Assembly (NCBI GenBank): GCA_964016885.1
Contig: OZ024741.1
Location: 281,232,001-281,296,000, forward strand
Length of the DNA: 64,000 nt
Source of the DNA: Eledone cirrhosa
Taxonomy: Eukaryota
Reading direction: 5' to 3'
The notes beneath the pieces were generated by a model. It saw only the letters and a list, made by a program, of their open reading frames with translations, was not told the DNA's origin and did no database searches. Each line of letters opens with the position of its first letter. Within the stretch, counting starts at the first letter, position 1. This document shows, piece after piece, positions 3,310 through 50,060 of this stretch. The position numbers were made by a program, and so were the translations under genes.

Positions 3310-4480
3310 TTCAGTCTGGTCTACCTCTGGTGTTAGGGTCTGTACCGTAGATAGAACTCAATGTAATCTTGTAAAATCCATAGAGAAGTTCTGTGTTTCG
3401 CTGAATTAATTCTGCCGAGGAGATATGCAATGTCAAGTTTGACGACATAGGGTGGCAACAGGCCACTTTACCTGTCAGGTACGGCAGCCTTGGCCTCCGG
3501 TCCCCGATCTCACTAGCTTTGCCGGCGTATCTTTCGTCGGTAACCTCGTGTCGCGTCCTCGTCAGCAGGGTTCTTCAAAACACAACAGAACCCTCTGTGT
3601 TCAGAGAATGTGAGGCCGCCTGTGAGACGTGGGACTGGCTGGGACTTAGCCCAGTAGACGTCCCTCCTCCTTCTCCCTCTGTTGACGTCAAGTCCCCTCC
3701 AACGCACTTGGGATGCCATCCAGTGCAGCCTGGCCTCAGACAGGCTCATACGCCAGCTCGACCAGCACCGCCTTGCTTGTTTTTGTGCGGCCACCAAACC
3801 CCACAGTGGTACCTGGCTCCATGCCCTGCCCTCCTCCACTGGCACGCAGCTAGACAACCATAGTCTGCGCATCGGCATTCCCTTGAGGCTCGGCCTCCGG
3901 ATCTGCCAGCCACACCAATGTCGCTGTGGTTCCACCGTGAACTCTTTCGGCCTCCACCCACTTTCCTGTCGCCACAGTGTCGGCTGCATTCCACGCCATG
4001 CTGCCCTCAACGAGGTCATTAAGCATGGCTTGAATGCTGCAGGCTTCCCTTCCCAGCTCGAGCTGGTGGGGCTGGATTGAGGGGACGGCAAAAGGCCAGA
4101 TGGCTTGACCATCTTCCCGTTCCGTGGTGGCAAACCCCTCGTCTGGGATGCCACTTGTACCGACACTTTCTGACAGGTTTGCGGTCGTACCCCTGGCAGT
4201 GGAAACTTCTGGTGTCCTCGGCCCCAGGGCTACCTCCTTACTCACCACAATAGGCGCTGAGCTGGCCAGCTGCAAGTGTGAGCCCCGCGAGTTGGAGTGG
4301 CTTTTCCAGCGCGTCTCCCTTGCTGTCCTCCGGGGAAACGTCTTCTCCATTCTGTCCGCCGGGGCTGTGGGTGGGCCCCATCGCGTATCATTTTTGTAAA
4401 TATGACAACAGTTTATGATTTTAGTAAATAATTGATATTTAAGAGTTAGATATTAGGTATTAAATTAACAATAAAAAAAA
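3310..4480 (+). mobile_element. 3' part of a CRE-like non-LTR retrotransposon (zinc knuckle plus restriction-like endonuclease), disrupted
   Basis: [45 protein letters not shown] and LFQRVSLAVLRGN. Contains a stop and a deletion between DTF and DRF. A-rich tail. Confidence 0.85.
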
Positions 4481-7198: not shown

Positions 7199-7542
7199 TG
7201 ACGAGAGCTTCAAGATAGAAAAGAATCATCTGTACTCCACCAACATGGTAAAATAGAACATAAGGTTACATTAGAGAACATAGAAATAAAAATACTCCAA
7301 CCAAAATTAAATAGAAAACAGGAATGGAATCACAACTTACAATTAAGGACAAAATGAAAACACACACACACATAGAACAAACAACCAACCAGTAACATGT
7401 AAATAAACAAATAAATAAACAAATATAAACACACACAGACACCCGGATGTAACACATGCACAAACTAAGCACACATCACACACAAAAACAAGATGGCCTA
7501 GGACATCAAGGAGAGGCACAAAAACAAAAAAAAGAATCCCCA

Positions 7543-7585
7543 GTCACTGAAGAGGTCACAGAATGTGTGACGAAAGAACTTTGAC
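7543..7585 (+). ncRNA. Minimal hammerhead motif
   Basis: GTCA CTGAAGA g gtcaca-gaatg-tgtgac GAA AG-aa-CT T TGAC, inside a cassette bounded by (TA)n at 7156-7197 and 7796-7848. Confidence 0.65.
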
Positions 7586-7793
7586 ACTATATGAACAACC
7601 GTCCGGTTGTGGAACCAACCAACCAACCGGAAATTTATAAATTCTTAAATTTATAAATTTAATTTATAATAAATTGGAGTGAAAGCAACTGGTGCGTGTG
7701 TTTCTTATTGGCAATATGACCCTCCCAAAGCATAACAATATCGGTTTCAACACATGTTTTCAGATAAAGAATCTTGCTAAACAAATTCAGAAA

Positions 7794-10436: not shown

Positions 10437-10716
10437 TCATCATCATATATTTACAACCCTTATTATATATATATATATCACGATAAATTAACAGAGCTAT
10501 AGGCCCTCGCCATTCCCTGTAAATAATGTGCTCAAAGGAGAAGAAATCCTGAGCTCTTTAAAATACAATATGTTGAAAAGGTAACACACCAGAGAGAGAG
10601 ATACAGTGCGCTATCAATAAAACAGGGAAAAAACCACCAGTGTATGGAGTCTATAACCTATGTAAGGCAGACTATAGACACGATAATTAAAAATATAAAT
10701 TAAAGAGTAAATAAAT

Positions 10717-11110
10717 GGAAGCACATGGCTTAGTGGTTAGAGCATTGGCCTTGCAATCGAAAGGTTGTGAGTTCAATTCTCATACCGGGTGATGTGTTGT
10801 TTCCTTGAGCAAGACACTTTATTTCACATTGCTCCAGTTCACTCAGCTGTAGAAATGAGATGATATGGACCCCAGTCCCTATCATTCCACTGCAAAGTGG
10901 TCGTGGAGGTGCCATGGCAAAAAAGCACCCAGCACTCACTGTAAAGTGAACATGTAGGTGCCACGGCAAAAAAGTACCCAGCACTCACTGTAAATGAGGT
11001 TAGTGTTAGGAAGGGCATCCAGCTGTAGAAATCAAGCCAGAATCAGTTCCCGTCCCACCCTTGCAAGCACGCAAAAGCGGACGTAAAATGAAATGATGAA
11101 ATGATGATGA
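10717..11110 (+). mobile_element. tRNA-headed SINE with a CORE-like centre and RTE-derived tail
   Basis: A box TGGCTTAGTGG, B box GAGTTCAATTC, CCTTGAGCAAGACACTT centre, and a tail shared with the RTE 3' UTR. A close copy lies inverted at 49678-50022. Confidence 0.85.
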
Positions 11111-11129
11111 TATATATATAGCCACTCTA

Positions 11130-28699: not shown

Positions 28700-29320
28700 T
28701 ATGTAAACATGCATGTATGTATACCTACATACATATGTGTATACAGGCGTACAGTAGTATGTATATATATACATACATGCACACATATATATATGTACGT
28801 ATCGGTTTACCGAACATTTATTATAATACTCGGTTTGTTTGTTTGTAAACAAACAAACAGCCCGAATTACGCCGTACAGTGTTTAAGCAACCACGTCACC
28901 TTTTTGTTCAACACTGACACAGGAACGATGTACTAGTTTCAAGCTTATTAGCTATCGCCAGCATCGTATACCTTCCTGCCAGATAGTTGAACGTCTGAAA
29001 GTATATACTTTCCTTATGCATATTAACTAGTACATCGTTCCTGTGTCAGTGTTGAACAAAAAGGTGATGTGGTTGCCTAAACACTGTATGGCGTAATTCG
29101 GGCTGTTTGTTTGTTTAAACAAACAAACCGAGCATTATAATAAATGTTCGGTAAACCGATATGTGCATATATATGTGTGTGTATGTATGTATATATATAT
29201 ACATACTACTGTACGTCTGTATACACATATGTATGTACGTATCCATACATATATACTTACATTTAAGTAAATGCCGTACTAAGAGTGAGAAATGAAATTT
29301 CGTTTCATTCTATTCCATTT
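28700..29320. mobile_element. Hammerhead-bearing cassette with ~230-bp inverted arms in (TA)n
   Basis: 28710-28938 is the reverse complement of 29026-29250. Minus-strand motif at 28926-28966: CGATG CTGGCGA tagc-taata-agctt GAA ACTAGT A CATCG. Confidence 0.85.
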
Positions 29321-29389
29321 ATATATATATATATATATTATAAAATGATATTAAATAAATGGAAACTATATTTATAAAAACATATTTAT

Positions 29390-29444
29390 TCTATTATATA
29401 TATTTCAAGGGCACCAAAACTTTGGTACGCTTTCATCAGATAAA
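29390..29444 (-). ncRNA. Hammerhead motif with intact core
   Basis: TTTAT CTGATGA aagcgtaccaaa-g-ttttggtgccctt GAA ATATATAT A ATAGA. The cassette is bounded by (TA)n. Confidence 0.75.
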
Positions 29445-29574
29445 ATACGAAGTGTGTTTTATAAATTTTGACATAACCAAGAAAAATACCTTAATGGTTC
29501 AAGTTTTCCTTGAACCATTTATATTTGTTGAATTACCAACAAATTGAATATCCCTTTTGCTTATATATATGTAT

Positions 29575-48267: not shown

Positions 48268-49030
48268 TTCCCCTTATTTATGTGTCCCAACAACTTTCTT
48301 TAGCCGTTGCTCGCACCAACCGGAGATATATGGTCTTTAAAGCGATGAAATACCAATGAAGGTTGGAAGATCACTGATGAAGGACTAACTTTATTCATAT
48401 GTAACCCATTAGCAGCCACGCAGCACATTTGTTTTCATATTCACACATATATTTTCCCCCGCTGTGACCCATCTATTTCGTTCTTACTGCTTCCTCTTTC
48501 TCTGTATCTTTACCCTCTCTAACAGTCACTTTCTCTGTTAGCCTCTTCCTCACTCTTCACTCACTCACTCTCTGCTACTACCTCTCCTACTTTCTCCCGT
48601 TTGACCTGTACGTAATTCTTTTCTCGCGCACGCTTGACCAGGCTGGTTGTTCCTTTTTTCTCTCTTGTCTACGATTTCACAGAACTTATGTTCACCGAAT
48701 TCAGGGACTAGACTCCTTCTTCCTCCCGTTTGACCTGTGCGGAATTCCTTCCTTGCTCACATTTCGACTAGGTTTGATGGTCTTTATTCTCTCTCGTTCA
48801 CGATTTCACCGAACTTATATTCATGGAAATCTGGGACTTGACTCTTTCTTCCTCACTTTTCGTTGCATTACCATCTTTGTTTGTTTACAGTCTCGCTCGT
48901 TCCCCTTATTTACGTGTCCCAATCACTTTCTTTAGCCGTTGCTCACACCAACCGGAGGTATATGGTCTTTAAAGTGATGAAATACCAATGAAGGTTGGAA
49001 GATCACTGATGAAGAACTAACTTTATTCAT
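48268..49030. repeat. ~633-bp unit with a ~130-bp terminal direct repeat, in (TA)n
   Basis: 48268-48400 recurs at 48900-49030. There is also an internal ~130-bp duplication at 48593-48855. Confidence 0.85.
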
Positions 49031-49061
49031 ATATATATATATATATATATATACGTATATA

Positions 49062-49665
49062 TAAATGAAACAAAATTTCATTTCCCACTCTTAGTATATA
49101 AGTACATACACGTACATACATATATGTATACAGGCATACAGTAGTATGTATATATATATATACATACATGCACACATATATATATGTACGTATGGATTCA
49201 CCGAACATTTATTATAATGCTCAGTGTGTTTGTAAACAAACATCCCGTATTAAGCCGTAATACGTACTTATATTTAAGTAACAGCCGTACTAAGAGTGGG
49301 AAATGAAATTTTGTTTCATTTTTTCCGTTTATCGTTTTCGGTGCACCCGGCCGATTAACCCACTCGATATGCAAATTGGGCTACTCAGCCGCTAATATGC
49401 ATAAGGTAAGTATATATGTTCAACAATCTGGCAGGAAGGTATACGTTGCTGACGATAGCTAATAAGCTTGAAACTAGTACAGCGTTCCTTTGTCAGTGTT
49501 GAACAAACGAGCAACGATGGTTGCTAGACACTACGGCTTAATACGAGATGTTTGTTTACAAACACACCGAGCATTATAATAAATGTTCGGTGAATCCATA
49601 CGTACATATATATATGTGTGCATGTACGTCTGTATACATATATGTATGTACGTGTACGTACTTAT
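49062..49665 (+). mobile_element. Retrozyme/pLTR-like cassette: 394-nt monomer plus inverted partial copy
   Basis: TACGTACTTATAT occurs at both 49261 and 49655. 49062-49257 is an inverted partial copy. Same family as 28700-29320. Confidence 0.85.
49444..49484 (+). ncRNA. Minimal type I hammerhead ribozyme, intact core
   Basis: CGTTG CTGACGA tagc-taata-agctt GAA ACTAGT A CAGCG. Predicted cleavage after GUA at 49479. Confidence 0.88.
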
Positions 49666-49677
49666 ATATATATATAT

Positions 49678-50022
49678 ATCATCATTCATCATCATTTCAT
49701 TTTACGTCCGCTTTTCCCTGCTTTCAAGGGTGGGACGGGAACTGATTCTGGCTGATTCTGGCTTGATTTCTACAGCTGGATGCCCTTCCTAACACCAACC
49801 TCATTTACAGTGAGTGCTGGGTGCTTTTTTGCCGTGGCGCCTACACGTCCACTTTGCAGTGGAATGATAGGGAACCCAATCTCATTTCTACAGCTGAGTA
49901 AACTGGAGCAATGTGAAATAAAGTGTCTTACTCAAGGAAACAACACATCACCCGGTCTGAGAATTGAACTCACAACCTTTCGATTGCAAGGCCAATGCTC
50001 TAACCACTAAGCCATGTGCCTC
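49678..50022 (-). mobile_element. tRNA-headed SINE, inverted close copy of 10717-11110
   Basis: The minus-strand translation at 10730 and the plus-strand translation at 49780 are almost identical. Confidence 0.85.
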
Positions 50023-50060
50023 CATTTATATATATATATACATATATACATATATATATA

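Follow-up and report, generated by a model that had tools for sequence, protein, structure and literature searches.

A retrozyme family of about 422 nt in Eledone cirrhosa, likely inserted into (TA)n tracts by a Penelope-like enzyme that probably copies circular monomer RNA

How does a short non-coding DNA that carries a hammerhead ribozyme, begins and ends with the same sequence and lies against an inverted copy of part of itself come to be inserted in the genome of Eledone cirrhosa, and from what kind of RNA was it copied? The locus lies in a 64,000-nucleotide stretch of contig OZ024741.1 (positions 281,232,001 to 281,296,000), the whole of which was analysed and is called the window here. 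A preliminary description had read it as a circularly permuted monomer of about 394 nt. The sequence said to be common to the start and end of the unit, the 13-mer TACGTACTTATAT, is indeed found at 49261 and 49655 and at no other place in the whole window, and the inverted piece said to span the unit junction is likewise real, with boundaries at 49063 and 49259. A majority unit of 422 nt was derived from 81 distinct units and numbered so that position 1 is 49261; read against this reference, the locus is a single inverted insertion with (TA)n tracts on both sides, composed as follows (basis of each feature in brackets).

49029..49061, no strand: (TA)n target microsatellite, left flank (sequence)
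49063..49259, minus strand: inverted arm, monomer positions 272-422, 1-13 and 29-61 (parse against the 422-nt unit)
49261..49667, plus strand: forward arm, monomer positions 1-362, 391-422 and 1-13 (parse against the 422-nt unit)
49274..49332, plus strand: 59-nt tail, from site A (49273 and 49667) to site B (49332) (end mapping; fold)
49443..49485, plus strand: type I hammerhead motif, predicted cut 49479/49480 (manual annotation of the sequence)
49598..49655, plus strand: AT-rich palindrome, a long hairpin directly before site A (fold, Rfam scan)
49668..49679, no strand: (TA)n target microsatellite, right flank (sequence)

The forward arm consists of one unit plus 13 nt and ends at site A, after which (TA)n follows. 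The inverted arm has lost monomer positions 14-28 and stops within the tail, 11 nt before the usual site B (position 72). The length of 394 nt belongs to this copy and not to the family, as it results from a 28-nt deletion (monomer 363-390) in the AT palindrome of the forward arm that the minus arm does not have; units are mostly 416-434 nt long, with modes of 424 and 422 (154 anchor-cut units, overlapping loci included), and there are subfamilies of about 422, 430, 444 and 480-510 nt. On folding, the tail contains a short hairpin, and the unit outside the palindrome has a better fold than shuffled sequences (z -5.5). Rfam microRNA matches at 49598-49680 all scored below the gathering threshold and correspond to the AT palindrome. 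Upstream of the hammerhead lie ATGCAAAT (49369-49376), which we take to be octamer-like, and AGGTAAGT (49403-49410), presumably similar to a splice donor; in a Penelope terminal repeat this would be the place of the promoter, and other retrozyme subfamilies have an altered donor-like site. The right flank is adjoined by a repeat that starts with a tRNA-like part, likely a SINE (49667-50032), that is 80% alike to 10708-11120, and tRNA-like matches occur in the window at 10726, 41235 and 50909.

The hammerhead was correctly described as intact. Read by hand, the type I motif at 49443-49485 has the complete core (CTGACGA and GAAA), the stem I ACGTTG/CAGCGT, a stem II of U.U plus 4 bp, and a stem III of 2 bp within the palindrome ACTAGT. 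The call is a manual annotation because Rfam misses the motif, which was undetected in the window copy at the gathering threshold and at E<=10. Its layout fits the canonical metazoan type I hammerhead, described in the available text of PMC4209133 as having 6 bp in helix I, 4 bp in helix II and a helix III that is short and palindromic, with activity in the dimeric form; by analogy, the short palindromic stem III predicts that the Eledone hammerhead would act as a dimer. The best fold of the monomer has stems I and II without forming the active core. The CTGACGA core is found in 483 hammerhead motif matches (overlapping loci included), and the stems are paired in 98.8% of cells. Stem I had been reported to stay paired across a double change, and the change is real, one pair being U.G in the subfamily of the window copy, A-U in the subfamily of a paralog at 29 kb and G.U in a third; it involves this one pair only, and the same covariation score was equalled by 67 of 500 shuffles. 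Substitutions between subfamilies amount to 2/43 in the hammerhead against 25/281 elsewhere (p 0.55), which leaves selection on the motif statistically unsupported. Other hammerhead-like sequences were also seen in the window. A second, unrelated motif (CTGATGA ... GAAA) on the minus strand at 29390-29447 adjoins the paralog, and sequence resembling it flanks locus L005 and occurs in locus L214; by a loose pattern, core matches alone were found at 7539-7590 (+) and 3520-3573 (-).

The search of the genome (3.0 Gb in 1,796 contigs) gave 8,917 exact matches of a 23-mer across the ribozyme cut, 8,869 of a 23-mer just 3' of it and 11,384 of one nearer the 3' ends. The family comprises about 10^4 units, dispersed as partial, tandem and inverted copies. 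The unit has a GC content of 37% and no ORF; a dimer has no ATG frame longer than 51 codons. A type I hammerhead in each unit, head-to-tail units within about 150-450 bp, the lack of coding potential and a GC content below 50% together place the family, on its sequence, among the animal non-LTR retrozymes, the class to which the preliminary description had assigned it. It might be argued that the copies are truncated ends of autonomous Penelope elements, whose terminal repeat and tail they resemble in anatomy, or that they form a DNA-level satellite in which one-unit insertions were duplicated in place, a process that is proven in a few long arrays. Against this, 47 of 99 arms are longer than one unit and continue directly with a further unit, in no case with an ORF, and the 51-codon frame is all that a dimer offers. 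Autonomous Penelope elements would call for an ORF with RT and GIY-YIG endonuclease, which the unit does not contain; its arms continue into more units. Attachment to a coding Penelope body had been named as a finding that would speak against a retrozyme, and no examined copy is the terminal repeat of such a body. This explanation in either form is very unlikely. As separate observations, retrozyme units at C12:20.40-20.44 Mb (L111-L113) have expanded to arrays that resemble satellites, with tens of units and a higher-order periodicity, similar arrays lie at C11:3.29 Mb (L172), L265-L266 and L269, and a distant relative, about 68% alike and with a different hammerhead stem II, lies beside a Penelope end (L283:3533-3763).

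The ends of the copies were mapped in 118 parsed insertions, 90 drawn from the 23-mer matches within the first 50 Mb of C1 and 28 among the best matches of another search. Six of these were dropped (three long arrays, a segmental copy, a possible duplicate and a fragment), and one further insertion, with its arms in the opposite arrangement, yielded no ends. The 112 insertions have 169 outer 3' ends, of which 142 lie at two sites spaced 59 nt apart: 66 fall in positions 4-17 (site A, mode 13) and 76 in positions 58-73 (site B, mode 72), and the remaining 27 are elsewhere. Almost all canonical 3' ends continue into (TA)n, and exact junctions of site B with (TA)n number 3,881 genome-wide. Because the ends run into (TA)n, a target site duplication cannot be delimited. 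Two canonical ends are present in 43 of the 58 inverted insertions, and 42 of these pair an A end with a B end (binomial p 1e-11). The window copy, its B end being 11 nt short, obeys this A+B rule, and so does the paralog at 29 kb, whose two arms are listed here.

28701..29024, minus strand: inverted arm of the paralog, 444-nt subfamily B, monomer positions 135-444 and 1-12 (parse)
29025..29322, plus strand: forward arm of the paralog, monomer positions 221-444 and 1-72 (parse)

What had been taken for a single copy at 29026-29320 is real and proves to be the forward arm of a second inverted insertion (28701-29322), with the minus arm ending at site A and the plus arm at site B, into (TA)n. 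Its only whole hammerhead, in the inverted arm, reads CTGGCGA, with one core base changed. The forward arm begins 8 nt upstream of the predicted cut, and this start at the ribozyme, to which weight had been given, is a chance truncation: 5' ends in the family are scattered across the whole unit and show no excess at the cut, where 2 of 99 were found within 8-9 nt (positions 212-228) and 4.0 were expected. The possibility that one arm is a fold-back copy of the other was rejected, as the arms of, e.g., L139 have no common sequence. Mapping of the start points of genomic copies had been proposed as a check, and it gave scattered 5' ends and 3' ends fixed at two sites; with fixed 3' ends, freely permuted start points cannot be maintained. 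Fixed termini had also been named as evidence against a circular RNA, yet they are expected from Penelope-type internal priming, and because such priming predicts them on a circle and on a multimer they are compatible with both alike.

The same ends bear on the idea that linear monomers, cut by the hammerhead, were copied and that tandems arose by template jumps from end to end. Such jumps would account for the occasional haplotype switches within arrays; the switches seen are, however, not restricted to the cut. Apart from the missing excess of 5' ends, 73 of the 75 arms extending as far as the cut go beyond it, none of 114 passes has an indel scar there, and the genome-wide 23-mer counts given above show no step; part of the sample of arms was picked by a pattern spanning the cut, and the genome-wide counts agree with it. 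Copying of linear monomers is likewise very unlikely.

With regard to the enzyme, the retrozyme behaves as an element mobilised by Penelope proteins does: two 3' ends bound a tail, the tail is present at one end of inverted insertions, and the target is a microsatellite. One Penelope-like protein has been found to cut both strands, to extend each of them and to begin reverse transcription at a pair of internal sites on either side of the tail (PMC11167929), and by analogy it is likely that a Penelope-like enzyme inserts the retrozyme into (TA)n. The genome holds 10,597 GIY-YIG candidates, 150 of which were scored. A young autonomous family, found with the protein of L214, has RT and GIY-YIG domains in open frames of about 900 codons and no CxCX5C linker of the kind described for Hydra; its two ends, 41 nt apart, run into (TA)n, and the A+B arrangement was found in all 16 inverted insertions with canonical ends on both sides. 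Of these, 11 were read from alignment coordinates, at loci chosen for paired ORFs, and 5 from a motif. The L204 family, with a CX4CX2C linker and a 64-nt tail, shows the A+B arrangement in 5 of 6; the stem III of its hammerhead variant (GAAAC-NN-GTA) is identical to that of the retrozyme, and its site A carries a motif resembling site B of the retrozyme. A search of 110 Penelope loci belonging to a few families (50 GIY-YIG loci, 30 found with the L214 protein and 30 of the L220 family) for a terminal repeat that aligns to the retrozyme found none; the candidate partners came down to separate nearby retrozyme insertions and short motif likenesses.

Further observations concern the Penelope elements themselves. 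In the L204, L205, L209 and L220 families the hammerhead core starts with U and not C (TTGAAAA, TTGATAA) in nearly all copies seen. The young Penelope-like family that includes L287, L293, L294, L313, L320 and related loci is probably active; its 3.16-kb unit carries a minimal hammerhead, its insertions are both tandem and inverted, and in many copies the frame of about 900 codons is intact. A Penelope-retrozyme fusion at a short microhomology was seen in L311 and L327:2560-2800 (G000:C2:375.83 Mb), where the last 67 nt of a Penelope copy are replaced by retrozyme positions from about 299 to 13; the junction is suggestive of a template switch and equally of a neighbouring insertion with a deletion.

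For the template, allele sharing among units and arms is better evidence of a single monomer than the start of the paralog. With two arrays of dimer periodicity and one long array excluded, subfamily alleles were present in both arms in 64 cases and in one arm alone in 19, with 12.1 shared cases expected if the arms were independent, and tandem neighbours had them in common 95 times and not 31 times, with 16.1 shared cases expected. A striking single case is L254 (C1:50602942-50606629), a young insertion in which an arm of 3.7 units runs to site A and one of 5.0 units to site B, and all 8.7 units carry identical alleles, including 141T and 316G; six of the seven anchor-cut units are identical, one substitution occurs in about 3.7 kb, and all eight genome matches of a 36-mer of its haplotype lie inside L254, although assembly polishing could also homogenise the locus. 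Identical units in both inverted arms count against the satellite reading as well. In contigs from four of six runs, the kinds of which were unrecorded, L254 appeared as a very deep repeat in X1 and as traces in the others. At monomer position 4, each of the three passes of the window copy carries G, an allele with 78 matches genome-wide (frequency 0.7%) that was seen in none of 245 passes elsewhere. In a control of 24 insertions chosen by this allele, 17 were informative; three, including the window copy, share it fully, two partly and 12 not at all, and the allele is therefore usually a later mutation and sometimes inherited from one template. Private alleles were shared between neighbours 26 times and unshared 222 times, as expected of later mutation, and have little power.

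The view that the copies were reverse-transcribed from a circular or multimeric template is in keeping with the fixed ends, the read-through and the shared alleles. On these grounds we lean towards a retrozyme of about 422 nt that a Penelope-like enzyme likely inserts in (TA)n, the RNA that it copies probably being a circular monomer. It is possible, with a clearly lower probability, that the template is instead an uncleaved linear multimer from a homogeneous tandem array, copied by the same Penelope machinery, and that the hammerhead is a weak leftover of a terminal repeat. A linear multimer also accounts for fixed ends and seamless read-through, and long arrays able to serve as its source exist. 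Mosaics in which neighbouring units or arms differ at at least two linked sites (L068, L069, L089, L096, L134) fit a linear multimer and count against a single circle, because one circle cannot yield them; in L109 an allele is present in six of seven plus-arm units and in neither minus-arm unit. Uncleaved RNA was, moreover, the main substrate of a Penelope-like protein in vitro, with the hammerhead dispensable and no reads ending at the cut (PMC11167929), and eight of nine Xenopus retrozyme dimers were uncleaved in vitro (bioRxiv 10.64898/2026.07.22.740005). On the other hand, a linear multimer needs arrays with the new mutation in every unit, and for the L254 haplotype the assembly contains none, a polymorphic source being one that could be missing from it. 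Old long arrays are internally diverse, and repeated 5' truncation would be expected to shorten arrays unless they are regenerated. Dimer and six-unit periodicities (L066, L140/L171, L172) show that DNA-level duplication also produces identical units.

If the template is a circular monomer, RNA processing, a circle and an enzyme would have to be added to the end rules and the read-through that were observed in the genomic copies. Tandem loci would be transcribed, neighbouring hammerheads would cut as dimers to release monomers, and a host ligase would close these to circles; retrozymes of mussel and axolotl do give circular RNA, according to the available text of PMC7229834. A Penelope protein would then cut both strands of a (TA)n tract and use one of them to prime reverse transcription at site A and the other to prime it at site B, each cDNA circling the template for a variable length. 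Joining of the two free cDNA ends would give an inverted insertion and loss of one a simple insertion, and some long arrays were enlarged later by DNA-level duplication. The near-strict A+B pairing suggests that the two start sites correspond to the two strands of one cut. We propose more tentatively, with belief and doubt close to balance and doubt somewhat the stronger, that each insertion is a single event in which a dimeric Penelope enzyme, with one subunit per tail end, performs rolling-circle reverse transcription of one ribozyme-made circle at both (TA)n ends. If true, this would amount to genomic proof of the life cycle proposed for retrozymes, and it would account for the presence of the tail at only one end of Penelope insertions. 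Movement of animal retrozymes by circular RNA and a Penelope enzyme has so far been proposed, not demonstrated; as this family is young and numerous, and as intact Penelope elements that follow its insertion rule occur beside it, the proposal is directly testable with an RNA of 422 nt and a candidate protein.

The retrozyme class and its suspected reliance on Penelope elements are already published (PMC7229834; bioRxiv 10.64898/2026.07.22.740005), and a literature search, sparse in subscription papers, found no description of the present family, of an A+B count or of retrozyme end-mapping. The non-LTR retrozymes of coral, mussel and axolotl, in the available part of PMC7229834, have the same non-coding tandem units of 150-450 bp with one type I hammerhead each, a GC content below 50% and thousands of copies, and in axolotl HHR_Amex2 helix II likewise has a U.U pair at its base and helix III likewise 2 bp. 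Circular RNA is known from those of mussel and axolotl, whereas the Eledone family was seen as DNA; conversely, insertion ends have been mapped in the Eledone family (two fixed 3' sites, inverted arms, (TA)n), a difference that holds for the same part of that paper. Retrozyme target duplications, where present, exceed 4 bp. In vertebrates retrozymes likewise co-occur with Penelope elements, on which dependence was proposed (Li, Clavereau, Pollet 2026, bioRxiv 10.64898/2026.07.22.740005); the evidence there is co-occurrence and sequence likeness to terminal repeats, and in Eledone it is the anatomy of the insertions, with no alignable parent among the 110 Penelope loci. The available texts on endonuclease-bearing Penelope-like elements (PMC8557442, PMC3846280, PMC11167929) describe the same 5' truncation, partial tandems and inverted 5' copy, and likewise a hammerhead, microsatellite targets, two internal starts and a tail that is often one-ended, an asymmetry given there merely as 'often' and quantified here by the 42 of 43 end pairs. 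From these elements, as described in the same texts, the Eledone retrozyme differs in having no ORF, a tail of 59 nt in place of 30-40, and a unit that is directly repeated.
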